Virus genome (UHGV): UHGV-1686243
DNA: 24,442 nucleotides
Strand: one strand, 5' to 3'
DNA from: a virus
The notes below the pieces were generated by a model. It was not told where the DNA came from. It did no database searches and worked only from the letters and a program-made list of their open reading frames with translations. The position numbers and the translations under genes are program-made. Below, piece after piece: positions 2,149 to 24,442 of this stretch (position 1 is the first letter of the stretch; every line of letters starts with the position of its first letter).

Positions 2149-2251
2149 ATGTCTCCCTTGTATGCTAAGGATACGATTCTAGAAGATGTCCTGTAAGGAA
2201 ATAACAAACTGACTAAGTTAGTGGCGCATTAGATGTTATTTCTGGAGGGGT

Positions 2252-5945: not shown

Positions 5946-6014
5946 CACTTATCTGTTCTCACATAAATCACACACTTTTTACACTCACAGCTTTCTCTAT
6001 AGTTGGAGTGTATT

Positions 6015-7400: not shown

Positions 7401-7464
7401 ACCAACCGCTGAAATCACATACTGATTATGCTGCCGCAAAACTGGAAACAATTTGCGGTGATTC

Positions 7465-9147: not shown

Positions 9148-9160
9148 CCGGAGGGAAATA

Positions 9161-10159
9161 ATGCAATCACTGAATACTGTTACGGATCGCTTCTCCCTGG
9201 TAGAGAAAATCCGCAAACACACACCGCAGAACAACCGAAATTACGTCATTCAGTCGGTACGAGACACATTCAACTCGCCAGAAACAAAAGAGCGTATCGC
9301 GCTGGGTGAGATGTATGGTTATTACGGTCATGGTCGCCGGGCGATGCACTATAACAAAACGAAAAGCCTGAACTTGCCGGAAGTCTCTGTTGTGATGGTA
9401 GATGGGAAGCCTGTTGTATTGGAGAACGTGCCGTCAAACAGGACTATCGACATTTCGATTGACGACAACGGCATTGTTACTCATACGCAGGAAATACTGG
9501 ATACAGACACCGGGCGTATTGTTCAGGGCATGATTAATTCTGGTGCTGGTGGTTGGTCGTGGGCTACATCTGGTCCAGATTCATCGGTATCCCTGGTAAA
9601 GTCTTTCCACGGCTTTGATTACGTAACTGTGCCTAACTATATCAGCCTCGACAAGAAAAGCCTGATGCTTGAATCAGCAGAAGAGCGCGATGCGGCTATT
9701 CATGCAGCACTTATCGAACAAGGTTTTACCGATAACGCTGCTACGGATCTGGTTCACCACTTTTCAGCAATGAAAAATCAGCAAGCCATGCTCGAATCTG
9801 CACATCGTGAAGCCCTGGAATCAGAATTGATGCTCCTTGAAGTGGAAAACATACAGCTTCGAGATAAGCTGCGCGCTCAAACAGCGATGATGGAAAGCCA
9901 GGGGGAAAATGCAAAGCAATGCCGCCGGATTTTGCGTGAAGCTATCCAGGAAATGCCTGTTTTTATCAGCGCAGAACAGCGCCGGGCGCTCTGCCGTATG
10001 CAGTCTGAAGATGATGCCCGCATAGTGGCTGCGATGCTTGAATCTCTTGGGGCAAATGCTACTTATGGCTTACCGGTATCAGGCAAGAAAGAACCAGAGT
10101 TATCACCGAAGGAGAACAAAAACACTACCCCGTTACTCTTCGTTTCCAGAAGGGGGTAA
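9161..10159 (+). CDS. head morphogenesis protein (putative prohead protease/scaffold with C-terminal coiled coil)
   Basis: RBS GGAGGG is 5 nt before ATG 9161, 13 nt after the portal-like gene. The C-terminal ~120 aa are heptad-like and Ala/Glu/Leu/Gln-rich. No catalytic residues could be assigned by eye. Confidence 0.3.
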   Translation: MQSLNTVTDRFSLVEKIRKHTPQNNRNYVIQSVRDTFNSPETKERIALGEMYGYYGHGRRAMHYNKTKSLNLPEVSVVMVDGKPVVLENVPSNRTIDISIDDNGIVTHTQEILDTDTGRIVQGMINSGAGGWSWATSGPDSSVSLVKSFHGFDYVTVPNYISLDKKSLMLESAEERDAAIHAALIEQGFTDNAATDLVHHFSAMKNQQAMLESAHREALESELMLLEVENIQLRDKLRAQTAMMESQGENAKQCRRILREAIQEMPVFISAEQRRALCRMQSEDDARIVAAMLESLGANATYGLPVSGKKEPELSPKENKNTTPLLFVSRRG

Positions 10160-10177
10160 TCGCCTTGTTAAGTTAAA

Positions 10178-10187
10178 TTTCTAACAT
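10178..10187 (-). promoter_or_regulatory. GTTAGAAA motif copy (minus-strand orientation), adjacent to 7-bp inverted repeat AGTGTAT/ATACACT
   Basis: Plus-strand TTTCTAACAT is the reverse complement of ATGTTAGAAA. It lies in the intergenic region after the protease/scaffold-like gene. Confidence 0.3.
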
Positions 10188-10270
10188 AGTGTATTTATAT
10201 ACACTGTTGATCCTGGTGGATGGGATCGAGTAGGATCGCGGTCACTGCTCCGGTAGCGACTGCCAAAAAA

Positions 10271-10297
10271 GCAAAAGCCGCTGAGAAGCGGCTTTTT
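10271..10297 (+). terminator. intrinsic terminator (bidirectional-looking)
   Basis: GC-rich stem AAAGCCGCT-gaga-AGCGGCTTT is followed by a T5 run and preceded by an A-run. Confidence 0.6.
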
Positions 10298-10300
10298 GGG

Positions 10301-10330
10301 TGTATAAATCCACTGCCATAGATTTATACG
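10301..10330 (+). promoter_or_regulatory. operator-like perfect inverted repeat GTATAAATC-N10-GATTTATAC upstream of the HTH gene
   Basis: 9-bp arms are perfectly complementary, 30 bp before GTG 10360. Related half-sites (GTATTTATA / TATACACT) occur at 10190-10200. Confidence 0.35.
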
Positions 10331-10359
10331 GTAGATAGATTTTTTCACGGAACTATCTG

Positions 10360-11322
10360 GTGAGTATTTTAAATTCAGTTTCAGTAACTTTCAACACTTC
10401 TGAGTATAAAAACAACACTGAATACCACAAAAAAATCAAAGGTCATCAGTTGAGTTTTTTTGCTCGTCATAGCGGTCTTCTTTCCCCTTCACATAGCGCC
10501 ATTATTGCCGAGTTCGCCAACCTGGCAGGGTCTACCGATGAATACATGATCCGTCGCTCATATGCTGATATGTCCGAGATTACAGGACGCAGTATTTCTA
10601 CTGTGCGCCGGGCATTTGCTGAAGCGACGAAGTGCGGAATGCTTGTTAAGCAACATCAGGTAGCGAATAACAATGCCCAGGTGTGTAACGTATATCGGTT
10701 TACGACACAATTTCTCCACTTCATTCATGTAGCAATGGAGATAGGGGGTAAGCAGGGCATCAAATTTGCCAACGCCACAAAACTGGTTAAGCAGTTGATT
10801 TCAAAGGTTCGTTATTTTTTTGAAACTGGGACCCCCCTGTTCAAATTGAACAAGTCCCCCCATGTTCAAAATGAACAGCCAATAGAAAATAAGAGTCACT
10901 CTATAGCCAAAAGAAGAGAAAGATCATGCGCGGTTCAGCCAAAGGCTTCACCAGCAGATAGTTCTCAAACGGATAACGTGGTACTGGATAAAAAACCAGT
11001 AACCAGGGAAGAACATACCAACCACTGCCTGGCGGCGGCAAAAGCGAGAGCTGCAAAGCGTCGTTCAGACGAGGGGCACGCAAAACGGCAGGCTCTGTAT
11101 CGTACCGCTGAAAAGCTGGCAAAAAAATTTGCATGGATACGTAGTGCCGCTACCGCAGTGAATAAGCCTAAACAATCCAGTGCCTTGGATTTCTCAATGG
11201 ATTATTCTGGCTCCCAGGGGTGTGCAACCATTGGTGAAGCCTTTGACCTGATGAAACAGCGTGGCTATCGGTCTGAATTTGACCGTGAGGATTGGTCAAT
11301 CCCGGCTGGCTTTAGGGGATGA
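10360..11322 (+). CDS. winged-helix DNA-binding protein, possible replication initiator (RepL-like?) or early regulator
   Basis: GTG start with weak RBS; the start is uncertain. HTH-like segment ADMSEITGRSISTVRRAFAEATKCGMLVK; basic C-terminal half. Internal palindromic repeats are listed in the findings. Confidence 0.4.
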   Translation: MSILNSVSVTFNTSEYKNNTEYHKKIKGHQLSFFARHSGLLSPSHSAIIAEFANLAGSTDEYMIRRSYADMSEITGRSISTVRRAFAEATKCGMLVKQHQVANNNAQVCNVYRFTTQFLHFIHVAMEIGGKQGIKFANATKLVKQLISKVRYFFETGTPLFKLNKSPHVQNEQPIENKSHSIAKRRERSCAVQPKASPADSSQTDNVVLDKKPVTREEHTNHCLAAAKARAAKRRSDEGHAKRQALYRTAEKLAKKFAWIRSAATAVNKPKQSSALDFSMDYSGSQGCATIGEAFDLMKQRGYRSEFDREDWSIPAGFRG

Positions 11323-11375
11323 CCTGTGCGTCTACAAAACATCCCAATGATCGGAAAATGCTCTCTCAATAATTT

Positions 11376-11386
11376 GTGTTAGAAAA
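11376..11386 (+). promoter_or_regulatory. GTGTTAGAAAA motif copy, preceded by ATGCTCTCTCAATAATTT
   Basis: Exact motif in the intergenic leader upstream of the small ORF / antirepressor operon, followed by TTAATTT. Confidence 0.35.
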
Positions 11387-11736
11387 TTAATTTGCTGTTT
11401 CTAAATCGGAATGTATGATCTGCATCATCGACTGAAATCATCCATTGCTGAAATTTTTAGTTGATCTTCCATGTTTTCAGGCTTATATTCATGTCGTCGT
11501 AGCAAATTCTGCGACCGGGTTTAGCAGCCTGAATACGAATGCGGACAACCGCAGATATCCGATATTGCGGTATTTTTGTGTCCGTAAAACCACGTTACGC
11601 CCGAATTATGGTGGGGCGTGATGGGGAGGCTTCGGCCTGCTGGTTTCATTCGTGCCAGTCTGCTAACCCCGTCACGTCCTGCCACCCGTTTAGCAGCGGG
11701 GCGCAGGTTGTTAAACCTACGAATGAGGCCGTAACT

Positions 11737-11961
11737 ATGGTTAATGCCAATCCTTGCTCGCGCCCGGAATTTATCTGGCGTTTCCACTCCCTGCAAAAAC
11801 ACTGCGATCACTTCGCAATTGCCGCAACTGAAAAAGAAGCCCGTTCTCTGATCCCTGATCAACATGGCGTCCTGACTGGCCGTTTCTCTACTTCATCACA
11901 ACCAAACACTAATCCTTGGTATCGCAATATTACCCATCCCGGAATTGCGGAGGCACACTGA
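11737..11961 (+). CDS. 74-aa protein translationally coupled to the antirepressor gene (Icd-like position)
   Basis: RBS GAGG is 8 nt before ATG 11737. The stop overlaps the Rha-gene start (TGATG). The longer 140-aa frame upstream has no RBS and runs through the hairpin-rich leader. Confidence 0.35.
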   Translation: MVNANPCSRPEFIWRFHSLQKHCDHFAIAATEKEARSLIPDQHGVLTGRFSTSSQPNTNPWYRNITHPGIAEAH

Positions 11962-12668
11962 TGGATATCTGCATTCTTGAAAAGCCATCAATGACCAGCA
12001 TTGAGATCGCGGAGCTGGTGGGAAGTCGTCCAGATAACGTAAAAATATCAATAGAGCGCCTGGCTAAATCTGGAGTTATTCAACTTCCTGCATTGCAGGT
12101 TTTCGAAAAAATCAATAACTTAGGACTACGCCGTAGTGTCGAGGCTTACGTCTTCGAAGGCGAGCAAGGCAAACGAGACAGCATTATTGTCGTTGCGCAG
12201 CTCTCTCCGGAATTCACCGCCCGGCTGGTGGACCGCTGGCGCGAACTGGAAGAACAAGTACGCCAGCCGTTGACCGAAATAGAGATGATCGCCGCAATGG
12301 CTGCAAATGCAGTTCAGCAGCAAAAGCGGCTTCATGCTGTTGAGTCAAAGGTTAGCCAGGTCGCTGAAACCGTCGAGCAAATCAAGAAGGGCAACATGCC
12401 AGATGGCTACATTGGCTACCGCCAGCTGGCTGCGAAATGTGGCCTGACTGAAGCCAAATGCCGCAACCTGGTTAACGCTTTCCGGATTCCCACCGATACG
12501 CATGAGTTTTTAACTCCAGAGGGGGTATTGTCGCGTCGTTCCATCGTGGCCTTATCTCCCTTCATGAATGCTTTTAACCGGATGATGTCGGAGGCAGAAC
12601 ACCGAGGAAAACGCTGGTATCACCCCAAAATGGGGCAATTCCAGGTGATCGGTTGGGGAGGTGAGTGA
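11961..12668 (+). CDS. Rha-family phage regulatory protein (candidate antirepressor)
   Basis: GGAGG is 8 nt before ATG 11961. The N-terminus ...MTSIEIAELVGSRPDNVKISIERLAKSG... matches the Rha signature as recalled (TS..IAE.fGkRHDNVlrdIr.L). Confidence 0.65.
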   Translation: MDICILEKPSMTSIEIAELVGSRPDNVKISIERLAKSGVIQLPALQVFEKINNLGLRRSVEAYVFEGEQGKRDSIIVVAQLSPEFTARLVDRWRELEEQVRQPLTEIEMIAAMAANAVQQQKRLHAVESKVSQVAETVEQIKKGNMPDGYIGYRQLAAKCGLTEAKCRNLVNAFRIPTDTHEFLTPEGVLSRRSIVALSPFMNAFNRMMSEAEHRGKRWYHPKMGQFQVIGWGGE

Positions 12669-12865
12669 TGGACATCATGCAGGCGGTAAAAAAAATCAGG
12701 GAAGGACAGGCTGAAGTGTGCCGCCGTAAAGCATGGAGTATTGATGTATGGGCATGGCCTGATAATTACTCTACTACCGGATGGTTTTGTATTAATGGAC
12801 TCAAGATCCGGGAAGTTTATTTATCGACGGCTGATATAGTCGGTAATGATTGGATCGTGACTTGA
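12668..12865 (+). CDS. DUF2829-like small protein (candidate Tad2-type anti-Thoeris sponge)
   Basis: ATG overlaps the upstream stop, with RBS GGGGAGG. The 65-aa protein has N-terminal ...AVKKIREGQAEVCRRKAW... and C-terminal ...DIVGNDWIVT, which fit the recalled DUF2829 pattern (G..v.RkgW ... DWe.). A paralog-like ORF lies at 21751. Confidence 0.4.
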   Translation: MDIMQAVKKIREGQAEVCRRKAWSIDVWAWPDNYSTTGWFCINGLKIREVYLSTADIVGNDWIVT

Positions 12866-12873
12866 AGCGTGAT

Positions 12874-12898
12874 GCCCCGGCCTGGCCGGGGCTTTTTT
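12874..12898 (+). terminator. intrinsic terminator ending the antirepressor operon
   Basis: GCCCCGG-cctgg-CCGGGGC followed by TTTTTT. It abuts the stop of the convergent minus-strand gene. Confidence 0.65.
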
Positions 12899-13383
12899 CA
12901 TGCCTCATTAGTTGAGGTTGCTGCGTCTCCGACTGGTAACAGAGCGGTATTGCGTGGTTCGCCAGCAGGCCAGCGATAGCCAGACACTCTTGATGTTGGG
13001 AATGCGCGAATATTAACCGCATCCCCCTGGTTCCCACCCAAGACAAGCAGATCGCCATTGGCGCGGCGTCCGACAACGAAGCCTACGTGCCCACCGCCTA
13101 CGCGGGTAAATACAACGATACATCCGTATGCCGGTGTATCTAATTTCTCGCCCCAATCCAGATAGGATTTTGCCGACTCAAATCTTGTTGAGCGGATGCC
13201 TACACGTTCCAGCATTGCACCGACAAATGCTGCGCACCACGGCGTTTCATCGTCTTTAATTCCGCCGCGCTTGATGTCGCGCCAGAACTGAACGATTTCA
13301 GGGTTGTGTTTAGCGCCTTTTATTTCAGTCAAGCCAATGTGCTTACGGGCTTCAATTAGCCAGCGAGGTTCAATGTTTGCCAT
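12898..13383 (-). CDS. CHAP / NlpC-P60-like peptidoglycan hydrolase (TIGR02594-like phage protein)
   Basis: Minus-strand ATG at 13383 with GGGAGA RBS. Cys/His motifs ...ETPWCAAFVGAM... and ...GGGHVGFVVGR... are typical of this phage-associated peptidase family. Confidence 0.6.
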   Translation of the reverse strand: MANIEPRWLIEARKHIGLTEIKGAKHNPEIVQFWRDIKRGGIKDDETPWCAAFVGAMLERVGIRSTRFESAKSYLDWGEKLDTPAYGCIVVFTRVGGGHVGFVVGRRANGDLLVLGGNQGDAVNIRAFPTSRVSGYRWPAGEPRNTALLPVGDAATSTNEA

Positions 13384-13534
13384 ATTTTTCTCCCGGTCAT
13401 GGGTTAATAAGTAGGCAAACTATGGGGAGTATGTGATTTTGACGGTAGTATCGTCCCCCTGAAAATAACATTCTCCATACCCTCTCAACCGTACCGCATA
13501 GCGGAATTTTTTACGGTTTAGAGGGGGAAATCCT

Positions 13535-16500
13535 TTGGACAAACTACTTCATTCAATCAGTGAAGCCTCCAGCTTAGGCGAACTGATTGAAATTGTTAGT
13601 CGGTTGCATAAATTACGTGCTGTTGCGACCTTTGGCGTCAGGAAAGCCGATGGCGTCAGTATTCAGAAAACACGCCGGGCAGCAAACAATGCCGCAGTAA
13701 ATCTTCTTAATTCCCTTCCGCCCGGCTTCGATGGGGCGAAATTAACTGACAAACAACGTCAGATTCTTGCTGGGTATACCGGTGAAGGCGGCCTGACAGA
13801 TGGTGAGGGCAGCCAATACGAATACTACACGCCACAGTTTATGGCTGAAGGTATATGGGATCTGTTTGCTGACTACGGTATTGATGGCGGGCACGTACTG
13901 GAACCATCAGCGGGCACAGGTATTTTCCAGGAGACAAAACGGCAGGGCATGATAATGACCAGCGCCGAACTGTCTCCGATTTCCGGTCGAATAAACCAGC
14001 TTTTGCACCCGGAAGACGATGTGAATATCGGGGCGTTTGAGGCGCTGGCAGCGAAAGACGCAATGTATGATCACGCTGTTGGTAACGTACCGTTTGGTGA
14101 AGGGCGTTCCGGTGTCGCCGGGCTTGATCCGGCATATGCAAACGAGAAGAACGTTGGCAATTACTTTGTGCTGCGCACGATCGACAAGGTTAAGCCTGGT
14201 GGGCTTATCGTATTGGTGGTGCCAAATGGCATGACCGATGGTACGAAATATAAAAAATTGCGCGATAAAGTCAGCCGTAAAGCGGAATTTTTGGGCGCAC
14301 ATCGTATGCCTTCCGGTACGTTCAGCGAATCCGGTACAGATACCGTGGTGGACGTATGGGTATTGCGTAAACACCCGGAAACCTTCCTGGAGATGATCCC
14401 CGACACGGATGATTCAACACTCAAATCGGCAAACGTCCTTTGGGATACCTTCCTCAAAGGAAAATGGTTTACAACCGAAGGGAAGCGATTTGTTTACGGC
14501 GACATGGAACGTACCAGCTTCCGCAATACCCTGGTGGTGAAAAAAGACGGTCGTGTATCCAATGAGTCGATGAAAACCGCGCTATCTCGTCGCTTTGATA
14601 GTCGCATCAATTGGGATTTGCTCGGCGTAACTACTCAGGCATGGCAGGGCGCGAAAGTGGGCGATAAACGCCTTGTAGGCGGTATCTGGCATGAGTTTGA
14701 TGGTCTGAAATGGGTTAAGGACACGACAACCAAATCCTCCGCGCTTGATGTAAGTCGATATGGTGTTTCGACGTTTGGCGATCTGCAGATCGCGTTTCAG
14801 TCAACAAATGGCATTCTGGCTTTGTCATGGGACCAGATATCGGCGATCGCGTCTGACTATCCATCGGTTGTCAGTGATGAAGTGGCAGCAATGATTCGCT
14901 TTGCTGGCAAGCAGCGAGAAAAAGACAGGGAGCGCGTTATGCGCGGTGCACTGATAGGTCAGTTGATCAACAAGGCACTTGATTTGCGTAACCTGGGGGT
15001 GAACGTTGATGACAAACTGGCAGATGCATCCCGCCTGGCGGCAGCAGAAGTTGCGAAGTATGGACCACCGCACGCGATTAAGCTGAATGGGCTTGCTGAA
15101 GCTGGCGCTAAAAACTGGATGACGTTCACTGGCAATGTGAAACAGGATGGTTCCACTTCTGACCTTCTGGCAGGGCGACTTGATGTAACGGATGGTGCTG
15201 CCGGTATTGACTTTACGCGTCCTGAACAAGTGATAGCACATCTTTTTAGTGATGTAGCCCTTAATCCTATAACGCTGGGCGACTTTCGTGAGGCGTTTGC
15301 TGGTGAACTGCCAGAGGACGACGACGCGGCCCTTGAATACCTGGCGAAATTTGATGATATCGCTATTGATGGGTATGGCTGTCTGCTGCCGATGGACCGC
15401 GCCACCAGCGGCGATGTTGCAACCAAAACAGCACTGCTGGTGGGCTGGCGTGATGCGTCAACAGGTGAGCAGAAAGCGAACTTTGAGCGTCAGTTGGCGA
15501 AAATCGAAGAGAAACGTATTTTCACGCCACTAAATAAAGTCACCGTTAATCTGAATGCCCGCTGGCTGGATCGCCGCTTGATAAAAGAGTTCCTGGCAGA
15601 GCAGGGCTATGACGAGTTTAAGTACACTGAACCTGATCTGAAGGTCGTCGATGGCATTCTGGTATCTCCGGACGATTACGAAGGTAAGGACGGTGTATTT
15701 ACCGGCTATCAGCTACGAACCGTAAACGGCAAAAACGGGAATGAGTTCAAGAAGGCCAACAATAAAGACGGCTTCCTGAACCAGTTAGAAAACTACCTGA
15801 ACGGTGTTAAACCGCGTGGGCAGAACGCTAACGAGTACCTGGATAAAATTGCTCAACTGGAAGTTAGCTTTAACGACTGGTTACGCACCCACCCGCAGGC
15901 GGATCAGATAGCCCGTGACTATAACGACGCATTCAATGGTTTCATTCCGTTCACACATTCTGACGCACCGCTAGGCCTGGAAGGGATTAGTGGAAAGCGC
16001 ATTCCTCTGACTTATCAGAATGAAGAAGTTCGCCGCTTGTCAGAAGATGGGCGTGGCATCATGGGATTTGGTACCGGGCTGGGTAAAACCACGACCGCGC
16101 TTGCGCTTGAGGCGTATAACTTCGAAACAGGTCGCACTAAACGCACGTGTATTGTTGTTCCGAAGGCGGTTTATCAGAACTGGTATCACGAGGCACAGAG
16201 TTTCTACAGTGCTGATGCCTTCGCCAATATGATGTTTATCGGTTTGGATGAAGTTCGTGATGACGGCGGAAATATTCTTACCGCGCCAGTGCTTGATGAA
16301 AATGGCGAACCACGCCTCGACAGTAACGGGCAGCCTCTTACCAGAAATGTTGTGAAAGAGTCCGCCAGCGCCGTTATCGTTCAGCGCATGAACATGATCC
16401 CGTCGTCAAATTGGCGAACGGTCATCATGACAAAAGAACAATTCGCGTCTATCCCGCTACGAGAAAAAACCATCGAGGAGAACTCACAGCAAGCTGTCTT

Positions 16501-19500
16501 TAATGCTGTGGAAATGGGGCGTCTTGACCTGGCGTCCGGTAAACACCGTGATGCGCAGAAGAAGAACAAGATTAAGGATCAGGCCGCGAATACCGGTACA
16601 ACGAAGAAGCAGAATATCCCGTACTTTGAGGATATGAACTTCGATAGCGTGATTGCCGACGAGGGGCATAACTACCGCAACTCCTTTAATGCCGGGCGTG
16701 AAGCGGGACAACTGGCATATTTGCCTAACCCGGCAGTATCCAAGATGGCCCGCGACATGGCTGTAAAAGCTGCGTACATGATGAAACGCAACAACGGGCG
16801 TGGTGTAGTCATGCTGACGGCAACTCCGCTGGTGAACAGTCCGATTGATGCCTTCAACATGCTGTCTACTGTCATTCCGCAGGAAGAGTGGATGCGCATG
16901 GGCATCATTACGCCTGATGATTTCGTTCGTGTGTTTGGCAAAACAGCCACAGTTCAGGTCCAGAAAATTTCCGGGGAAGTGGAAGAGAAGCAGGGGCTGG
17001 TGGGCTTCCAGAACCTTGACGGCCTGCGTGGTATTTTCCATCGTTGGACCACTCTGAAGACTGCTGCAGATGTCGGAGCGACGGTTAAAATTCCAGACAT
17101 CATCGAGAACACCTTGCAGATCCCGATGACAGGGGAGCAGGAGACTGCTTATGAAGAGCTTCGTAAGCGTGCTCAGGAGTTAAGTCGCAATGATGAGCTG
17201 ACAGTCGATGAAAACGGGCATATCACTAACGACAAACCGGATGATTTCATCTTCTCCATCATCCGCGACATGGACAAGGTTGCTATAGACCCGGATCTGT
17301 ATGCCAGTGCGATTACATTCCAGTTCCCCGTTGAGCTTGCAGACCAGGTAAAAGCTATTGCTGATGCCTTGCCAAAAGTAGCTGGCGGTAAAGTGGCAGA
17401 TGATGTTGATGAGGCCGAGGAAGACGGCGCTGGCGGGCTGGTCAGTACGCGTACCAGCAAGGTAGTGAAGACCGCTTTTAGTGAACATCCGACGCATGTT
17501 GAAATACGTGCCAGCATTGAACTGGAAGCTGAAATACTGAAGGCCATTGCGGCTGCCGGTATTGATATGCAGCAGGTATCGCACCCCATCCCGCCGAAGT
17601 ATGCCGCGCTGATCGAAAATCTTCGTGAAGGTCTGAAGAACGGTAAGCAGATCGTCTTTATTGATGAAAAAGCCCAGCACCAGAAGCTGCGCCGTATTAT
17701 CGCCAGTGCACTGCAAATGCCGGAGCAGGAGATTGGCATTATCAATGCGACGACAGTTAGCCAGGCTGGCGGCATCAAGCTGAAGAAGGTGAATAAGCCG
17801 ACCGAACCTACTCCAAACAAAAACGGTGAATACAAAGAAGGGGCATGGGAAACCTACTACAGCAAACTTGCACAATATGAGGATTATCTCTCAGCTAAAA
17901 ATGATGCTGGCCTTGAGGGCATGGAAGGTATTGCCGCCGACTATAACGAAGGTCGCACGCGCATCATAATCTGTAACAAGAAGGCTGAAGTAGGTATTAA
18001 CCTGCACATCGGGACAACCGATATCCATCACCTGACACTACCCTGGACACCAGCCAGTATCGACCAACGAAATGGGCGCGGTGCGCGCGTAGGTTCACCG
18101 CAAGAAAAGGTCAATGTTCACTACTATTGTGGCAAAGGCACATTCGACGACTTCCGTCTGGATACGCTGAAACGTAAGAAAGACTGGATCAAGATGGTGA
18201 TGACATCCGACATGTCAGAGATCGCCAATGGTGATGCGGATGATGCTGATGAACGCGCCATTATGCTGGCGGCAAACCCGGAAGAACGCCGCGCAATCAT
18301 GGCTCGCCAGGCGCAAGAGCGTGAAGAACGTCTGAAACTGAAAGCACAGCGCGAGGCCAACAATGCTCTCGATATCTACCTGAAAGCGGCAAACGCCGCC
18401 GGAAAAGATATCGGCATGATGGAGACAGAACTGAAAAGCGCGATGGAACAGATAGAGCATTACCAGCGCAATCTTGACGACCTGATAAAAGCGGGTACGA
18501 ACAGGAATGGGCAAAAATACGCGCTTGAGCAGTTGAGTAGCTACAGAAAACGTGCGCGGGTGCTGAAGTTTGCGATCACCAGGGCAAAAGACGCGGATAC
18601 CATAATGAAACGCTCTCGTGGTGATGTGGAGCGCGCTATTAAGTCTGGTGTGCTGGATATCAGTATCGATGTTATTCAGAACCCACAGGAATATATGCGC
18701 ACTGACAAGAATATCCTGTTGCATAAAGGTAGTTATTACCGTGCAGTCATTGATGATCGCGAAACAACAGCGATTGTCCGGGTGGAAAAAATTGACGGTG
18801 AAAAAGCACAATACCTCTGCCGTATCGCCTGGCTGGATAGAGCAAGTCGTTACGCTCGAGCACCGGGGTCAATCGTTACATTGCCGTTTGACTCTGTGAT
18901 TGAAGCGGTAACTTTTGAAGAGGGGGTTGCTGAATCGCGCGCAACGGCTGCGCGTGGTGTTCAGTGCCACCAGCTATCAACAATACTTACTCGCGATCAG
19001 TTCTATGATGCTATTCGCAATGGGGTAATGAATGTTATTGCTGGTAAACCTGGTAATGCATGGGGCGGTGGGTCAGCTATTAAATACTGGGCATATCGCA
19101 CAGATGATGGTCAGATCGCGCTGTCATCGGCCTATGATGGCGTGATAGGCCAAAAAATCGGGCGAGCATCGGATATAGCACCTGAGCGATGGATATATCC
19201 TGATGGCAACGACGAGGCGCTGAAGCGTGAAGTGGCAAAAATACAAGCCAGTGATAACCCGCTGAATATCGTGGACGGCGAGGGATTCCTCCAGGCATTG
19301 TATGGGTATGATTACACCCAGGGAATGCAGGCATGGGGCGCACAGGCAACGATGGATGATGTTGCCCAGGAGTTCGAAAACTGGATGGCTGGGCGTGGTC
19401 TGTCAGGTCGTTCGCTTAATAAAGTCACTTCTGAAGATATTCTTAGCTTGTTCCGCAAACCGTCCGGAGAAGGTCTGGAATCATTCTGGAGGACCGTGCT

Positions 19501-20371
19501 GGCATACCGTTTATTCCAGGGCAGGATGAAAGCCTTTAGCAATATCGATGATATTGAACGGATGTTTAATCAGGTCAAGATCGCGAAAATTAAGGCGAAG
19601 ATCGAAAAAACACGTTCTGCGCTGGTGGCCTGGCGCGATGCATTGTTTGAGCAATATAAATCACTCAGTGATGCAGATGGATGGGCGGCATTGGAACAGC
19701 TGGCGAATAATGGGGTAGATGGAGCGAAACTCGCCATTGTTCAGGCTGATAACCCCCTGGAATCACCGGCAGCACAGTGGATTAAGGTGGGGGCTGTCAT
19801 CAATGCATTTGATGAAAAACACATTAGTAAGGACGATTTTGCTGATGCTGTTTCTGTTAATCGCCTGGTAGAAATGGCTACCCGCCGCGCACGTGAGTTG
19901 AAAGACGGCGACTATGTGAATGAGTTGCCGGATACGCTCAAATCGGCAACGTGGCAGGACTATGTATCGCTGAAAAACGGCGGGGCCACTGAATCAGAGA
20001 TCGCGGAAAGGCTTGAGCAGGCTGAAAGCAAAAGAGAAGAGCAGGCGGCAGTGGCTGAAGCCAGAGCTGATGAAGCGGCGAATGATGACTATATCATTGT
20101 GGTTAATGATAAGCCGATTCGCGCTAAGGCGCGTGTTCGCGGGCGCTGGTGGAGCGTCAGCGAGGACGTTGGCGCGGTTTATCTCATTGCCGACCAACCA
20201 GGTTCCTCGACAATACGGAACGCCAAAGACGCGATTAAGAAGATTGGCGGGCGTTTCTGGAATTTTGAAGCAAACCCGGTTGCTGATGTGAACTTTGACC
20301 GTCCTGCATGGATGGTATCTACGCGTTACTCGGTAGATGAACTGCGTAAAATAATCGCCGATGCGGCCTAA
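13535..20371 (+). CDS. darB: DarB-like giant anti-restriction protein: N6-adenine methyltransferase fused to an SF2 (DExH/SNF2-like) helicase
   Basis: TTG start 7 nt after a strong AGGGGG RBS. 2,278 aa. MTase motif I VLEPSAGTGIF and motif IV-like GNVPFGE; helicase motifs GFGTGLGKTTTALAL (I), VIADEGHNYRN (II), VMLTATPLVNS (III), IDQRNGRGARVG (VI). Size and architecture match recalled P1 DarB (about 2,255 aa). The gene symbol is assigned by architecture and synteny, not by alignment. Confidence 0.7.
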   Translation: MDKLLHSISEASSLGELIEIVSRLHKLRAVATFGVRKADGVSIQKTRRAANNAAVNLLNSLPPGFDGAKLTDKQRQILAGYTGEGGLTDGEGSQYEYYTPQFMAEGIWDLFADYGIDGGHVLEPSAGTGIFQETKRQGMIMTSAELSPISGRINQLLHPEDDVNIGAFEALAAKDAMYDHAVGNVPFGEGRSGVAGLDPAYANEKNVGNYFVLRTIDKVKPGGLIVLVVPNGMTDGTKYKKLRDKVSRKAEFLGAHRMPSGTFSESGTDTVVDVWVLRKHPETFLEMIPDTDDSTLKSANVLWDTFLKGKWFTTEGKRFVYGDMERTSFRNTLVVKKDGRVSNESMKTALSRRFDSRINWDLLGVTTQAWQGAKVGDKRLVGGIWHEFDGLKWVKDTTTKSSALDVSRYGVSTFGDLQIAFQSTNGILALSWDQISAIASDYPSVVSDEVAAMIRFAGKQREKDRERVMRGALIGQLINKALDLRNLGVNVDDKLADASRLAAAEVAKYGPPHAIKLNGLAEAGAKNWMTFTGNVKQDGSTSDLLAGRLDVTDGAAGIDFTRPEQVIAHLFSDVALNPITLGDFREAFAGELPEDDDAALEYLAKFDDIAIDGYGCLLPMDRATSGDVATKTALLVGWRDASTGEQKANFERQLAKIEEKRIFTPLNKVTVNLNARWLDRRLIKEFLAEQGYDEFKYTEPDLKVVDGILVSPDDYEGKDGVFTGYQLRTVNGKNGNEFKKANNKDGFLNQLENYLNGVKPRGQNANEYLDKIAQLEVSFNDWLRTHPQADQIARDYNDAFNGFIPFTHSDAPLGLEGISGKRIPLTYQNEEVRRLSEDGRGIMGFGTGLGKTTTALALEAYNFETGRTKRTCIVVPKAVYQNWYHEAQSFYSADAFANMMFIGLDEVRDDGGNILTAPVLDENGEPRLDSNGQPLTRNVVKESASAVIVQRMNMIPSSNWRTVIMTKEQFASIPLREKTIEENSQQAVFNAVEMGRLDLASGKHRDAQKKNKIKDQAANTGTTKKQNIPYFEDMNFDSVIADEGHNYRNSFNAGREAGQLAYLPNPAVSKMARDMAVKAAYMMKRNNGRGVVMLTATPLVNSPIDAFNMLSTVIPQEEWMRMGIITPDDFVRVFGKTATVQVQKISGEVEEKQGLVGFQNLDGLRGIFHRWTTLKTAADVGATVKIPDIIENTLQIPMTGEQETAYEELRKRAQELSRNDELTVDENGHITNDKPDDFIFSIIRDMDKVAIDPDLYASAITFQFPVELADQVKAIADALPKVAGGKVADDVDEAEEDGAGGLVSTRTSKVVKTAFSEHPTHVEIRASIELEAEILKAIAAAGIDMQQVSHPIPPKYAALIENLREGLKNGKQIVFIDEKAQHQKLRRIIASALQMPEQEIGIINATTVSQAGGIKLKKVNKPTEPTPNKNGEYKEGAWETYYSKLAQYEDYLSAKNDAGLEGMEGIAADYNEGRTRIIICNKKAEVGINLHIGTTDIHHLTLPWTPASIDQRNGRGARVGSPQEKVNVHYYCGKGTFDDFRLDTLKRKKDWIKMVMTSDMSEIANGDADDADERAIMLAANPEERRAIMARQAQEREERLKLKAQREANNALDIYLKAANAAGKDIGMMETELKSAMEQIEHYQRNLDDLIKAGTNRNGQKYALEQLSSYRKRARVLKFAITRAKDADTIMKRSRGDVERAIKSGVLDISIDVIQNPQEYMRTDKNILLHKGSYYRAVIDDRETTAIVRVEKIDGEKAQYLCRIAWLDRASRYARAPGSIVTLPFDSVIEAVTFEEGVAESRATAARGVQCHQLSTILTRDQFYDAIRNGVMNVIAGKPGNAWGGGSAIKYWAYRTDDGQIALSSAYDGVIGQKIGRASDIAPERWIYPDGNDEALKREVAKIQASDNPLNIVDGEGFLQALYGYDYTQGMQAWGAQATMDDVAQEFENWMAGRGLSGRSLNKVTSEDILSLFRKPSGEGLESFWRTVLAYRLFQGRMKAFSNIDDIERMFNQVKIAKIKAKIEKTRSALVAWRDALFEQYKSLSDADGWAALEQLANNGVDGAKLAIVQADNPLESPAAQWIKVGAVINAFDEKHISKDDFADAVSVNRLVEMATRRARELKDGDYVNELPDTLKSATWQDYVSLKNGGATESEIAERLEQAESKREEQAAVAEARADEAANDDYIIVVNDKPIRAKARVRGRWWSVSEDVGAVYLIADQPGSSTIRNAKDAIKKIGGRFWNFEANPVADVNFDRPAWMVSTRYSVDELRKIIADAA

Positions 20372-20407
20372 CAGATAAGGAGCGGCCCCAACTGGGGCCG
20401 AATTTGA

Positions 20408-20842
20408 ATGACGACATTAATTGACACTGTAAAACCGACGGAATCCTACCTTGAGGACATTTTGCCGCAGGCGCTCAATGGCAGGAGTGAAGAGGCGTTT
20501 CTGGATGCATATCTGAATGGCATGGTGGAAAGGCTGAAACGAGATCCACAGCTTTATCACCTTTATGGGCCGTGGTGGCCTGCGCTTAAAACGTTATTGC
20601 TGGAGCGCGGCGACATATCATTTGGACAAGTTGTAGATAGTGATGTGGCAGAGATCTACAAAATGAGTCGCCCGGCGCTTACGGTTTTGGCTGGGCATCT
20701 GTATTCGAGCGATCGCCTGGAAAATGACGCGGTATACAATCCTGTTCATGCTCTGGAAGTCGCACCTTATGCCGATGATACAGAGCCATACGTGTACACA
20801 AGTTACGACGAGTCTATAGAGAAATATCGAATTATGGGGTAG
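20408..20842 (+). CDS. hypothetical protein (144 aa)
   Basis: ATG start. A GGCCCC-aact-GGGGCC hairpin sits between the darB stop and this start. No recognisable motif. Confidence 0.5.
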   Translation: MTTLIDTVKPTESYLEDILPQALNGRSEEAFLDAYLNGMVERLKRDPQLYHLYGPWWPALKTLLLERGDISFGQVVDSDVAEIYKMSRPALTVLAGHLYSSDRLENDAVYNPVHALEVAPYADDTEPYVYTSYDESIEKYRIMG

Positions 20843-20844
20843 CC

Positions 20845-21105
20845 ATGCGAAAGAATCGTAGGTTTACGGTCGAAGACCTAAAGGAATATTCCATATCGAA
20901 GGGGTATATCCTTGAGTTCCACCGATACAAGAAGGTTTTTACGCTGCGAAAAGCAGAAAACCCTGCGAACTGGAGCTGGATATACTTTCCTCACACCGAT
21001 GATAAGTTGGTAGAACTTGTTGATGATTTAACCTATGAAGGTTGGTTGATCGCAATCGACAAGACAATCAAAGAATTATCCGAACAGGATAAAATAACCC
21101 TTTAA
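20845..21105 (+). CDS. hypothetical protein (86 aa), AT-rich coding sequence
   Basis: ATG is 2 nt after the upstream stop, with a GGGG RBS. Composition is visibly more AT-rich than the flanking genes. Confidence 0.45.
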   Translation: MRKNRRFTVEDLKEYSISKGYILEFHRYKKVFTLRKAENPANWSWIYFPHTDDKLVELVDDLTYEGWLIAIDKTIKELSEQDKITL

Positions 21106-21241
21106 AAATAACAGGTTGGGTAAATGCCATGCGATTTACCCTCCTTGTTGATTAAGGTCACTCTTTACTCTAAAAGCAAATCCGACCTGTTGCATATAGA
21201 CCATCCTTGAGTAGTATCTCTCTTGTTTTACAAATCTAACG

Positions 21242-21736
21242 TTGTTGTTATTATTTCGCATATTTACTATCAATGGGTGTGTTAGAAAAATAGCGCGAAA
21301 GAGAAGGCGTCGCAGTGAATATTCTGAAACATCCCCACATGCCGCAGCTCTTAGAGAACTGGAGAAAAACCCAGATCTAATCAAAAGGAACCATGAGCAT
21401 TACGAGCAGGTTCGCGTCCTGGACTGGATGTATCGCAATATGCGTTATGTGTATGAGCATACTCACGCCACTCCAAACGGTGGCCTGCGAGGCATAAGGA
21501 CGGCAATAAAAATGGTGGCAGAGGGCCAAAAGAAGGGATATCCCGATCTTTCTATAGACCTTGCTTGTGGGGGATACCACGGAATGCGCATTGAGATGAA
21601 ACATGGGAGAAATCGCCTGACTCCCGAACAACTCGTCTGGATGACTCGCCTCACAGAAGCCGGTTACTACTGCTTTGAGGCGCGCAGTGCCGCTGAAGCC
21701 ATAAAAGCTATCACGGAGTATGTTTGTCTTGATTAA
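21242..21736 (+). CDS. VRR-NUC domain nuclease (PD-(D/E)xK superfamily)
   Basis: C-terminal ~100 aa ...GYPDLSIDLACGGYHGMRIEMKHGRNRLTPEQLVWMTRLTEAGYYCFEARSAAEAIKAITEY fit the VRR-NUC signature. The start is uncertain: there is no in-frame ATG or GTG before the domain, only TTG 21242/21245, and a motif copy lies inside the predicted N-terminus. Confidence 0.55.
   Translation: MLLLFRIFTINGCVRKIARKRRRRSEYSETSPHAAALRELEKNPDLIKRNHEHYEQVRVLDWMYRNMRYVYEHTHATPNGGLRGIRTAIKMVAEGQKKGYPDLSIDLACGGYHGMRIEMKHGRNRLTPEQLVWMTRLTEAGYYCFEARSAAEAIKAITEYVCLD
21279..21289 (+). promoter_or_regulatory. GTGTTAGAAAA motif copy upstream of / within the 5' end of the VRR-NUC frame
   Basis: Exact motif match. Confidence 0.3.
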
Positions 21737-21750
21737 ACGGAGAAATCGTT

Positions 21751-21951
21751 TTGCGTTTACTTAACGTGGCAGAACTTATCCCTGCAGGAACTAATGCTAT
21801 CGCTCGTCGTCGCTCATGGCAGCAGGCACTATGTATTGAGATCTCGAAACGTATCAATGGAAGTTTTGAAGCTCGCAATATTGTTACTGGCGATAAGGTT
21901 CACATAACCCCGGAAAGTGCAAGCGCTGATGATTGGGAGTTTGTACATTGA
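21751..21951 (+). CDS. DUF2829-like small protein, second copy (candidate Tad2-type sponge)
   Basis: TTG start with GGAG 8 nt upstream. The 66-aa protein has N-terminal ...PAGTNAIARRRSWQ... and C-terminal ...SADDWEFVH, the same pattern as the ORF at 12668. Confidence 0.35.
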   Translation: MRLLNVAELIPAGTNAIARRRSWQQALCIEISKRINGSFEARNIVTGDKVHITPESASADDWEFVH

Positions 21952-22247
21952 GCAAAAAATATTATGTTAGTCTGGCGTTCGCTGACGATGCGGGGAGGAC
22001 GCGGAGTATCACGTTGAGCACACCGGTTAAGGCTGTGACAGCGCCGTTAATCCGTGAAGCTCTCAGAGAGCTGGAATTGGGGGAAAACTCGGCACTGTTG
22101 TCGGTTAGTTGGTTCGGGAAAATGTCAGAGAAACAATACGTGGATGGAGTTACCCCAATAACAGTAATGAGGCTACTTTCATTGCTGCAATGGGCCATCG
22201 TACCTGTATTTATCGCGTATCTTATTTATCAGGCTGCAACACAGTAA
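21933..22247 (+). CDS. small protein with C-terminal transmembrane anchor
   Basis: TTG start at 21933 or 21948. C-terminal hydrophobic segment VMRLLSLLQWAIVPVFIAYLIY. A strong terminator follows. Confidence 0.35.
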   Translation: MGVCTLSKKYYVSLAFADDAGRTRSITLSTPVKAVTAPLIREALRELELGENSALLSVSWFGKMSEKQYVDGVTPITVMRLLSLLQWAIVPVFIAYLIYQAATQ

Positions 22248-22253
22248 TTGCAT

Positions 22254-22282
22254 AAAAACCCGCCAATTAGCGGGTTTTTTGT
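22254..22282 (+). terminator. intrinsic terminator
   Basis: AACCCGC-caatta-GCGGGTT followed by TTTTTTGTTT, 7 nt after the stop codon. Confidence 0.75.
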
Positions 22283-22321
22283 TTATTGCATCTTCCGATA
22301 CCGTCATCAAACTAATAAAAT

Positions 22322-22332
22322 ATGTTAGAAAA
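22322..22332 (+). promoter_or_regulatory. ATGTTAGAAAA motif copy 28 nt upstream of the 407-aa gene start, preceded by CTAATAAAAT
   Basis: Exact core GTTAGAAAA followed by CTAATTT. Its position is consistent with a promoter or operator for the gene starting at 22361. Confidence 0.4.
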
Positions 22333-22360
22333 CTAATTTAACAAAGTGACGGGAACAGCA

Positions 22361-23569
22361 ATGAGTCAACACACTGATACTTCTAATCTGGAAATTATCT
22401 CGACAGCAATTGAAACGCTGCGCACACAAATCGCTCTTATACAGAAACGGAATCCGGGTGATGACCTGTCAAAGCGACTGCACGAGAGTGTCATTGCCAC
22501 TACAGATAACCTGGTGGCGGAAATCAACAAGCTGCTTGATGATGGGGCAGTTGATTACAATAAGCTGGTGGATCAGTTTGAGGAATACCAACAAGCCGTT
22601 AATGATGGCTTGATCCGTTTTTCACAAGTCACAGGCGTATCAGCGACAGTTGAAAGCCTGGGCGATGCAGTTAATCAATTTGCCGCGAATATGCGTAATG
22701 AGATCGGCAATCTGGAAGCGCGTCTTGAACAGGCAAATACACTGCGTAAATCTGCCGAAGCCGATTTGAACCGTTACAAAAAAGACTATCCGCCAAGCCT
22801 GACAAAGCGGCTGGATGTTGCGGAGAAGGATAACCGCACGCTGAAAAGAGAGCGCCGGGAACTAAAAGAGCGTTTAACCAAGCTCAATCAGCAATGCATT
22901 GATTATCAAGGCGAAGGCGTCACACTGCGTAAAAAGTTGGCTACAGCGCAGAGCATTATCGAAACATTAAAGCGAGAGTGTTCACAGCTTGGTCACGATC
23001 TGAACCGTGCTTGTGGCATGGGACAAAGACCAGAGACATTTCCACTTATGTATGATGGAAGGGATGCCATTGCCTACATCCATGAGTATCCGCACGGCCT
23101 GGTTGCGGAAACTGGGCAGCGTGGCGAAGCACTGCTGACGGCTAATTACCATCAACAAATCAGAACTAATCGCCTGTTAACGATGGATGTGATCCCATCG
23201 GTATGGGGAACGCCGCTTTACTATCGCCTGCCGGGCTTCGAAAAGGACTGGAATACCGACATAGACGAATGTCTCGCAGATAAAATTATGGCGTACCTGG
23301 AGACGGATTTTCCGCGCTTATATCGCCGGATTATGGACTCTAAGGATGCGCCAATCGATGAATTAAAAATGCGTCCGGAGACGCTGGAGGCAATCAAGCA
23401 GACGGAGTTTGATACTGTATTCAGTGTGGCCTGCATTCCAAGCTGTTTCCATGAAAGCATTCCGTTCATGCAAGGAGATCGTCGTCAGGAAATCATTGAC
23501 GCTTGCCGGGTATGGGCGAACGAATGGGATAAGAAGAATGGGGGTGTAGAAGATCTTTACGGGAAATAA
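22361..23569 (+). CDS. coiled-coil protein of unknown function (403 aa)
   Basis: ATG 22361 is preferred over the GTG 22346 used in the ORF track. N-terminal ~220 aa are heptad-rich; the C-terminal half has no recognisable motif. Confidence 0.55.
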   Translation: MSQHTDTSNLEIISTAIETLRTQIALIQKRNPGDDLSKRLHESVIATTDNLVAEINKLLDDGAVDYNKLVDQFEEYQQAVNDGLIRFSQVTGVSATVESLGDAVNQFAANMRNEIGNLEARLEQANTLRKSAEADLNRYKKDYPPSLTKRLDVAEKDNRTLKRERRELKERLTKLNQQCIDYQGEGVTLRKKLATAQSIIETLKRECSQLGHDLNRACGMGQRPETFPLMYDGRDAIAYIHEYPHGLVAETGQRGEALLTANYHQQIRTNRLLTMDVIPSVWGTPLYYRLPGFEKDWNTDIDECLADKIMAYLETDFPRLYRRIMDSKDAPIDELKMRPETLEAIKQTEFDTVFSVACIPSCFHESIPFMQGDRRQEIIDACRVWANEWDKKNGGVEDLYGK

Positions 23570-23570
23570 T

Positions 23571-23581
23571 GTGTTAGAAAT
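23571..23581 (+). promoter_or_regulatory. GTGTTAGAAAT motif copy
   Basis: Match immediately after the stop of the 407-aa gene. Confidence 0.3.
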
Positions 23582-23726
23582 CTAAAATCACAATTCGAAT
23601 GTATTGATTGTGAAGATGACTTAACATAGAATTTTCCTTGCTGGTGGGCGGTACCCACGTTTCGCTTGCTGGGCTTGATAGTCACTTATTGGTTATTGTT
23701 TGCCCACCAGCAATTAACAAATTAAA

Positions 23727-23737
23727 GTGTTAGAAAA
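23727..23737 (+). promoter_or_regulatory. GTGTTAGAAAA motif copy followed by GTATAGT (-10-like)
   Basis: Exact match in the ORF-poor region. Confidence 0.35.
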
Positions 23738-24221
23738 GTATAGTAAGCCAAGAGCACGCTTTGGCACCGAGCAGACCAAAGTTCAACAGGTTTAGTGCGG
23801 AAAGTGGTTTCAGAGAGAGCACTTTGCGGAGTAAACGACAATACATGTTGAGCCACGGAAGGTCTTTTTAAGGTGTTCATTGATGATGGTCCGGCAGAGA
23901 GTAACGGTACATGCTGCATCTAATCATCAATGCACATCTTCAACATTAAGGAGGCATAGGGATTTTTGTGGCGGTTACCTTTTGCCCTGAGTCTCCTTAA
24001 TGTTGCAGTAATGCACCTATGCGGATGTGGCCTTGCATTGTGTCTTGAAAGAATGGGGTAAGGCCGGGGATATCCCCAGGGGGAGGCACCCCCGCTGCAA
24101 CGAACAGCCACAGACGGCAGTCGAGTGATGGAAACGTGCAAAGACTTTAAACCTCGTTACGGCTGGCGTGGCAAACGCGACAACCGAGACAGAGCGGTGA
24201 CGGGCGGAGAGAGTGCCGCAT

Positions 24222-24343
24222 CAAGAAAGAAGCCGACTTGTGATCCCTTTCAGCGGGCATTTGAAAGTGAATCCAGCTCAGGCAGTCGGCTTCTTTCTTG
24301 TGTGAGATGTAGCGTATTTGCCCATCTTCGGGTGGGCTTTTTT
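24222..24343 (+). ncRNA. candidate small RNA: 17-bp perfect-stem hairpin followed by a UUCG-loop intrinsic terminator
   Basis: CAAGAAAGAAGCCGACT (24222-24238) and AGTCGGCTTCTTTCTTG (24284-24300) are perfect reverse complements. GCCCAUC-UUCG-GGUGGGC plus U6 lies at 24320-24343. No credible ORF. Confidence 0.25.
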
Positions 24344-24442
24344 AGGGTTTTCGTCATGGTTAGCGACTTTGCGGCGGTTTAGAACCCGACCATTAAAGTA
24401 AATGCAAACGATGATCTGATGATGGTAGCGGCCTAAGAAGCC

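Follow-up and report, generated by a model that had tools for sequence, protein, structure and literature searches.

Dispersed copies of a nine-base motif in a phage-D6-like plasmid prophage as candidate operators of the C1 repressor

We suggest that the 9-mer TGTTAGAAA, which recurs in a 24,442-bp stretch of the virus genome UHGV-1686243 (the window, meaning this whole stretch), is the invariant core of an asymmetric operator of about 19-22 bp, ttTGTGTTAGAAAAcTAATTT, for the D6-type C1 prophage repressor. The regulatory design would be that of phage P1 with another DNA sequence, and we put the probability of this reading at roughly 80%. The window shares 98.5% identity with Escherichia phage D6 (MF356679) and 99.7% with the plasmid CP056796.1, and by this similarity it belongs to a plasmid prophage of E. 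coli that is D6-like and of the P1 family. The design of the C1 regulon in the P1 family is already known, and the specificity would have diverged here; the D6-type operators would extend a known system, and the mechanism is not new. A sequence-only reading of the window had proposed the motif as an operator or a phage-specific promoter element. The operator part of that proposal is well supported by the analysis below, and the part that involves a late activator or a phage promoter fails.

The exact 9-mer is found six times on the two strands of the window, at 10178-10186 on the minus strand and at 11377-11385, 21280-21288, 22323-22331, 23572-23580 and 23728-23736 on the plus strand. When the sequence was shuffled with its dinucleotides preserved, the copy number averaged 0.17, was at most 2 and reached six in 0 of 100 shuffles. 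The six intergenic copies counted in the sequence-only reading are thereby borne out, as is its hand estimate of about 0.2 expected copies; its coordinates were right within one base, the shift arising because it described the 10-mer (A/G)TGTTAGAAA. With one mismatch allowed, extra matches in the window appear at chance level only, and a position-weight matrix (PWM) built from the extended sites recovers the same six places and no others. Hence, the sites are either near-perfect or absent. When the 120-bp tandem repeat at the left end is excluded, TGTTAGAAA is the commonest dispersed 9-mer of the window. All six copies are non-coding in the PGAP annotation of CP056796.1, and the D6 GenBank annotation places the copy at 21280 inside the first 16 codons of pmgM.

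A motif search of the whole D6 genome returned 12 exact copies and 3 near-copies, every one of them non-coding or at a gene edge; P1 has none. Two near-copies with one core mismatch lie upstream of lpa (TATTAGAAAATTAAT) and in the cre-c1 spacer (TTTTAGAAA). Alignment of the window and D6 copies gives the extended consensus TAA..A.tT(G/A)TGTTAGAAAA(c/t)TAATTT, with the information content high across about 12 bp and lower in the AT-rich tail. The extended site is asymmetric and is no palindrome. The flanks had been described as an AT block before the core and a TAATTT- or TATAGT-like element after it, and this is partly right: a TAnnnT hexamer stands exactly 2 nt past the core in 5 of the 6 window copies and in 8 of 13 copies overall.

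Some of the sites are paired. The reverse-complement motif was scored at offsets of 9 to 30 over 28 sites, and an inverted second half-site matching at least 7 of 9 bases appears at +21 (6 of the 28 sites) and at none of the other 21 offsets. The cores of such inverted pairs are separated by a fixed 12-nt gap, and the second copy is the weaker one at several sites. Perfect inverted pairs with the same 12-nt gap occur in the plasmid NZ_LR890273 (L011) after pmgS, in L039 ahead of lpa, and in L033/35/36/40. In the bivalent sites the gap is AT-rich and carries -10-like hexamers, with cores on both sides. The copies are found in both orientations relative to nearby genes, about 6 of the 14 in D6 being anti-oriented to the flanking genes (pro/repL, lpa, the 3' end of ref, ppp/pdcB, orf117/cre and hrdC).

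The core is conserved well beyond its surroundings. L011, in which the pro-repL spacer is 85% identical to that of the window, keeps all six window sites; their cores agree at 54 of 54 bases, whereas the ±40-nt flanks are 61% identical. Other relatives were compared by the identity of their C1 to the D6 C1, which is 89% in L008, 51% in L006 and 44% in L007. The sites upstream of c1 and lpa are kept in all three despite diverging surrounding DNA, and the lpa site has its weak half, 12-nt gap and strong half in 4 of the 4 lineages compared. Both sites after pmgS are kept in L008 and L006 (the L007 sequence ends before that region). The flank ATGCTCTCTCAATAATTT of the 11377 copy, earlier likened to a P1 C1 operator, is not conserved: 3 of its 18 positions differ in D6 and it is wholly replaced in L011, with the TGTTAGAAA core unchanged. 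Nor does the window contain any match within 3 mismatches to the P1 operator consensus ATTGCTCTAATAAATTT, which we re-derived from the annotated P1 record. As the flank varies while the core stays, the operator would be the motif itself rather than its flank.

This conservation bears on the possibility that TGTTAGAAA is merely a core common to constitutive early promoters of the sigma-70 type, or a dispersed repeat without a protein partner. The AT-rich context and the -10-like hexamer fit such promoters, and the core had been compared to an extended -10 (TGnTAGAAA). However, TAGAAA has A in place of the essential T at -7, and RNA polymerase does not need nine invariant spacer bases. Cores kept at 100% beside flanks at 61%, and kept also where C1 is 44-51% identical, are hard to reconcile with a promoter or an idle repeat, and so are the two orientations, the fixed-distance inverted pairs and the absence of the motif from P1-type elements that share the same host polymerase. 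A stringent promoter scan reported no promoter at any TGTTAGAAA core. We consider this the least probable of the explanations weighed here. Binding sites of host factors (IHF, CRP, LexA, Fur, RcsB and others) were also considered and rejected; none fits, and they would not explain the restriction to D6-type elements.

The motif follows the type of the repressor. In IMG/VR all 32 D6-type C1 loci contain TGTTAGAAA, in 1 to 7 copies within up to 21 kb, and in 31 of them c1 is preceded by a copy at a distance of 20-28 bp. Of 80 P1-type C1 loci, one has the motif, in one copy only. The sequences of the motif, its statistics, its positions, its conservation and this co-occurrence are established directly. 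The D6 C1 (345 aa; orf1; QLY99926.1 in CP056796.1) is 21% identical to the P1 C1 (283 aa) over 240 residues (E 2e-8), and both belong to the Pfam family PF27008, Phage_P7_repressor_C1; for the D6 protein this label is a precomputed one, and a search of our local Pfam copy assigned it no family. With the D6 C1 as query, a PDB sequence search gave no match and a close-relative scan of genome contigs found nothing. The two repressors are only distant homologues, and a changed operator specificity is therefore expected.

In P1, C1 binds at 22 dispersed operators, each asymmetric and 17 bp long, and repL and lpa are under its control (PMC8546580). P1 contains about 21 copies of the string TGCWCTAAT and D6 a single one (within gene 23), and TGTTAGAAA occurs 12 times in D6 and 0 times in P1. 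The D6-type sites can be paired with P1 operators by position. The 11377 site would be the counterpart of Oc4/Op51, with the same distance of about 100 bp to a1/b1 and the C4 RNA; the site upstream of lpa, of Olpa/Op94; the site directly upstream of c1 together with a second one in the cre-c1 spacer, of Oc1a-e; the site upstream of ref, of Oref; the site at the 3' end of ref, of Omat; and the site upstream of hrdC, of Odmt. Likewise, the site at the 5' edge of pmgM matches O26/Op82 ahead of pmgL-pmgM, the site ahead of pmgS matches OpmgRa/b (Op86a/b) in the pmgR-pmgS control region, the sites downstream of pmgS match OpmgT (Op88), approximately so for 23728, and the site in the pro-repL spacer matches OrepL.

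The D6-type sites share with the C1 operators of P1 and P7 their general layout, that is, many asymmetric sites of 17-20 bp (about 14-15 in D6 and 20-22 in P1) in the non-coding DNA of a phage-plasmid of about 90 kb, in either orientation, some in inverted pairs, with a PF27008 repressor encoded by the same element. In both systems sites are found at c1, lpa, c4-icd-ant, repL, ref, the dmt operon and the pmg control regions, and a highly conserved left part is followed by an AT-rich tail (AATAAATTT in the P1 operator). Except for this tail, the sequence of the D6-type site is unrelated to that of P1 and P7, and the repressor is 62 aa longer. The bivalent geometry differs as well: in the D6-type sites the cores are 21 bp apart and the tails overlap by about 4 bp, whereas in P1 (Oban ab, Oc1 ab) the 17-mers overlap by 6 bp and are 11 bp apart, centre to centre.

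A similar logic is described for mycobacteriophages L5 and L1, where the gp71 repressor has asymmetric multi-copy sites ('stoperators') genome-wide (PMC1934351). The likeness is that one prophage repressor would serve many short, asymmetric, dispersed sites instead of a small number of symmetric operators in a single immunity region. Stoperators act within transcription units in an orientation-dependent manner. In contrast, the D6-type sites lie in intergenic control regions in both orientations, and the repressor family, the host and the sequence are unrelated.

The protein that binds TGTTAGAAA might also be another lineage-specific one; candidates would be either of the two Rha/Roi-type 'antirepressor' proteins and a lytic regulator of the Cro/Coi kind. 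Co-occurrence cannot separate C1 from other proteins of the D6 lineage, and a Rha-family regulator is encoded directly downstream of the 11377 site. We find this unlikely, as the set of sites mirrors the P1 C1 regulon almost locus for locus, a site of the kind expected for autoregulation immediately precedes c1 in 31 of 32 loci, another lies upstream of lpa in 4 of 4 lineages, and the C1 repressor is the only one of the Pfam DNA-binding families recorded within ±10 kb of c1 in L006-L008.

Our model for the C1 repressor is as follows. In the plasmid-prophage state C1 (345 aa, PF27008) would bind the asymmetric sites of about 19-22 bp, ttTGTGTTAGAAAAcTAATTT, scattered over the genome, and at the inverted pairs (12-nt gap, 21 bp centre to centre) two repressor molecules could bind on the same helix face. 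With this binding, C1 would shut off the c4-icd-antirepressor operon, pmgM (the VRR-NUC gene), pmgS, the transcript that follows pmgS and possibly repL in the window, and lpa, c1 itself, ref and the hrdC-dmt operon outside it. We infer both that C1 is the binding protein and that its binding means repression. The likely mechanism would be the occlusion of a -10-like hexamer beside the core or between two cores, or a roadblock just after the promoter; in particular, a bivalent bracket around the AT-rich 12-nt gap would occlude RNA polymerase. Since lpa is among the proposed targets, the separate late promoters AAATCACAnACT-N3-TAnnnT would stay silent until the repressor is inactivated.

The six window sites differ in how they would fit this scheme. 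The first, a candidate monovalent operator at 10169..10190 on the minus strand (PWM score 25.4), lies between the pro stop (10159) and repL (10360). It is adjoined by the palindrome GTGTATTTATATACAC (10189-10204) and is upstream of a strong bidirectional terminator, AAAAGCCGCTTCTCAGCGGCTTTT, at 10273-10296 between pro and repL. Its core is exact in the window and in L011 and has one base changed in the D6 type strain (TGTTAGCAA).

The second, at 11373..11410 on the plus strand, is a candidate bivalent operator with the strong core at 11377-11385 and, after the 12-nt gap, the inverted weak half TTTCTAAAT at 11398-11406, a 7 of 9 match at offset +21; the bivalent form is also present in L011. 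Downstream of this site, at a distance of about 100 bp, follow the c4 a1/b1 targets with the C4 antisense RNA and the icd-antirepressor operon. Rfam places the c4-a1b1 targets at 11483-11535 and the C4 antisense RNA at 11604-11689. A P51b-like promoter, TTGATC-17-TATATT, is found at 11461-11489, and the c4 module (11461-11689) is conserved with P1. In this region the DNA homology between the window and P1 starts only at the P51b-like promoter, and hence it is the segment upstream, with the candidate operator, that has been exchanged.

The third is a candidate monovalent operator at 21276..21297 on the plus strand, with the core at 21280-21288 and the lowest PWM score (17.9), at the 5' edge of pmgM. 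An extended -10 promoter, TTTACA-16-TGnTATTAT, is predicted at 21227-21254, and the site stands about 20 nt past the predicted start of transcription, in a roadblock geometry. The pmgM start codon is uncertain: the D6 annotation uses TTG at 21242, with the motif inside the gene, versus 21359 in the PGAP annotation of CP056796.1, and the homology to P1 PmgM starts at codon 29. L011 has an in-frame stop upstream of the motif and TTG/ATG directly after it. This stop would set the start of pmgM right after the motif, with the motif in the 5' leader.

The fourth site, a candidate monovalent operator at 22319..22340 on the plus strand (core 22323-22331), is the closest match to the consensus (PWM score 31.0). 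The pmgR terminator (22254-22279) precedes it, and the probable ATG of pmgS (22361) comes 30 nt after it; the annotations give GTG at 22346 versus ATG at 22361 (PGAP) as the pmgS start, and L011 supports the latter.

The fifth and the sixth candidate operators, post-pmgS a (23568..23589, core 23572-23580) and post-pmgS b (23724..23745, core 23728-23736), are both on the plus strand. Post-pmgS a follows directly after the pmgS stop codon and is about 25 bp upstream of a sigma-70-like promoter, TTGATT-17-TAGAAT (23604-23632). L006 and L008 have kept this promoter, and the core of post-pmgS a is invariant in both; in L011 and L033/35/36/40 the site is a perfect bivalent pair. Post-pmgS b is followed by TATAGT and heads a structured non-coding region of about 600 nt that ends at the terminator 24320-24337; the block TAACAAATTAAAGTGTTAGAAAA at this site is identical in the relative with the 51% identical C1. 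The non-coding DNA of about 750 nt at 23590-24340 contains a perfect 12-bp Chi-carrying inverted repeat (23638-23649 / 23702-23713) and further long inverted repeats at 23867-24015 and 24222-24300, and its block TTTGGCACCGAG (23760-23771) is kept in distant relatives. An Rfam search of 23500-24442 at a permissive threshold gave no credible family for the structured region. The non-coding region after pmgS may specify an uncharacterised C1-controlled RNA.

The late genes of the D6 lineage appear to use a different element. The 11 annotated Lpa-dependent late promoters extracted from the P1 record read (AAC)AAGTGACTT-N4-TAnAAT. Neither the window nor D6 has this P1 box, a scan of the window giving chance-level matches (3 versus 1.7 expected) and none at TGTTAGAAA; TGTTAGAAA as a P1-type late promoter was rejected. 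In its place the late operons carry AAATCACAnACT-N3-(T/C)AnnnT, with 4 matches in the window versus 0.38 expected and with A2 and T6 of the -10 hexamer invariant. The box is centred near -22, is accompanied by a -10, and is always co-oriented with a late (lysis, head, tail) gene, 30-60 nt upstream of it. In the window it is found as AAATAACAAACT-N3-TAAGTT at 2199..2225 (box 2199-2210, plus strand) ahead of lydA; as AAATCACACACT-N3-TACACT at 5965..5991 (box 5965-5976, plus strand) ahead of a ddrB-like gene (6003); as AAATCACATACT-N3-TATGCT at 7412..7438 (box 7412-7423, plus strand) ahead of prt (7465), the counterpart of P1 LPpro; and as AAATCACATACT-N3-CATAGT at 13413..13439 (box 13428-13439, minus strand) ahead of the hydrolase gene (12898-13383), the counterpart of P1 LPlyz. 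Boxes of this type are also found in D6 ahead of R, pmgB, gene 23 and mat; those outside the window include L004 5125-5136 and 12501-12512 and L005 10109-10120, all on the minus strand. We suggest that AAATCACAnACT-N3-(T/C)AnnnT is probably the D6-type Lpa-dependent late promoter. The sequence of the AAATCACAnACT box is unlike that of the P1 -22 box AAGTGACTT, and in structure the element corresponds to LPdar, LPpro, LPlyz, LPs, LPmat and LP23 of P1. The D6 Lpa is only 31% identical to the P1 Lpa, which fits a changed late box.

These promoters bear on the idea that TGTTAGAAA is itself the box of activator-dependent promoters, served by the D6 Lpa or a middle-class factor, with the core at about -23 to -15 and TAATTT as the -10. 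In common with the P1 Lpa promoters, TGTTAGAAA is a multi-copy phage-specific box directly before a -10-like hexamer with no good -35; the geometry of a -22 box plus a -10 is alike, eight to nine copies face a downstream gene, and the divergence of Lpa would make a changed box plausible. However, TGTTAGAAA differs from the P1 late promoters in sequence, in spacing (N2 versus N4), in gene class and in its inconsistent orientation. The late operons (lydA, ddrB, prt, the endolysin-like gene, R, pmgB, gene 23 and mat) carry the co-oriented AAATCACAnACT box, so that the role of late promoter would already be filled, and TGTTAGAAA precedes immunity and early genes (c1, lpa, c4-icd-ant, ref) that in P1 are C1-controlled and not late. 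Between the end of the c1-proximal copy and the ATG there are 19 nt, and a start 7 nt past the pseudo -10 of this copy would land in or after the Shine-Dalgarno sequence; this copy is thus too near for a promoter role. The TAATTT tail is retained in the anti-oriented copies and hence is more likely a recognition sequence for a protein than a working -10 everywhere, and fixed-spacing inverted pairs are no feature of promoters. We regard this explanation as very improbable. We also give a low probability to dual-purpose sites, in which the core and TAATTT would form a -35-less class of early or middle promoters absent in P1, turned off by C1 and on by a D6-specific factor, or to a motif bound by an unrecognised regulator other than C1.

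Several points weigh against the assignment of TGTTAGAAA to C1. The choice of C1 over another lineage-specific DNA-binding protein is based on position and analogy. The co-occurrence with D6-type C1 is confounded with lineage, as whole genomes differ between the two groups; it ties the motif to the D6-type regulatory system and is by itself no proof of C1 binding. The positional match to P1 is only approximate for some sites (pmgS versus pmgR, ppp/pdcB and repL), and the D6 sites at gene 23/orf52 and orf117/cre are without a P1 counterpart. At several sites no convincing -35/-10 promoter was found for the site to occlude. The least convincing site is 10178, the function of which is doubtful: it precedes a terminator, faces away from repL and has a mutated core in D6.

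The operator features are absent from the annotation of the D6 GenBank record. Literature searches for D6 operators found none, with an earlier description in the D6 genome paper (Gilcrease and Casjens 2018) still possible, and a full-text search for the motif string returned unrelated primer sequences only.

In the D6 annotation the left part of the window contains lydA-lydB-hdf-darA-ddrA-ddrB, followed by the portal gene prt (7465-9147), pro (9161-10159), repL (10360-11322), icd with the Roi/Rha-type antirepressor (11736-12668), an endolysin-like peptidoglycan hydrolase gene (12898-13383, minus strand), darB (13535-20371) with ulx and orf13 after it, pmgM/VRR-NUC (about 21242-21736) with orf11 and pmgR after it, and pmgS, which ends at 23569, with about 870 bp of non-coding sequence after it. 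Beyond the right end of the window, lpa lies in CP056796.1 at the window-equivalent position of about 28,800 and c1 at 32,100-33,150, about 9 kb past the window end. D6 has a second icd and Rha/Roi-type antirepressor module outside the window (orf83/orf82, L005 12022-13178).

Two further features of the window are noted. The 120-bp tandem repeat at 125-753 (5.2 copies, 92% matches) lies within a long open reading frame (89-1447) and encodes in-frame 40-aa repeats, probably of a protein of the tail-fibre region; this left end of the window is unlike the D6 type strain. The Chi sequence GCTGGTGG is present in 12 copies versus 0.68 expected, 9 of them on the plus strand (9545, 12014, 12224, 15402 on the minus strand, 15436, 16996, 18967 on the minus strand, 19621, 20145, 22564, 23640 and 23704 on the minus strand), and two Chi copies form the arms of the perfect 12-bp inverted repeat after pmgS.

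Last, we turn to what the proposed operators would mean for this group of elements. Phage-plasmids of the D6 kind are common among E. coli, Salmonella and Shigella: a 15.4-kb query (window 9000-24442) is covered to at least 80% by 101 plasmids of PLSDB. If our reading is true, ttTGTGTTAGAAAAcTAATTT and AAATCACAnACT-N3-TAnnnT would let the lysogenic and the late regulons of the D6 lineage be annotated directly, and heteroimmunity with P1 and P7 is predicted. P1 and D6, with repressors 21% identical, would then be a naturally occurring case of repressor and operator specificities that have diverged, in which it may be followed how a monomer-type repressor of asymmetric sites changes its target.

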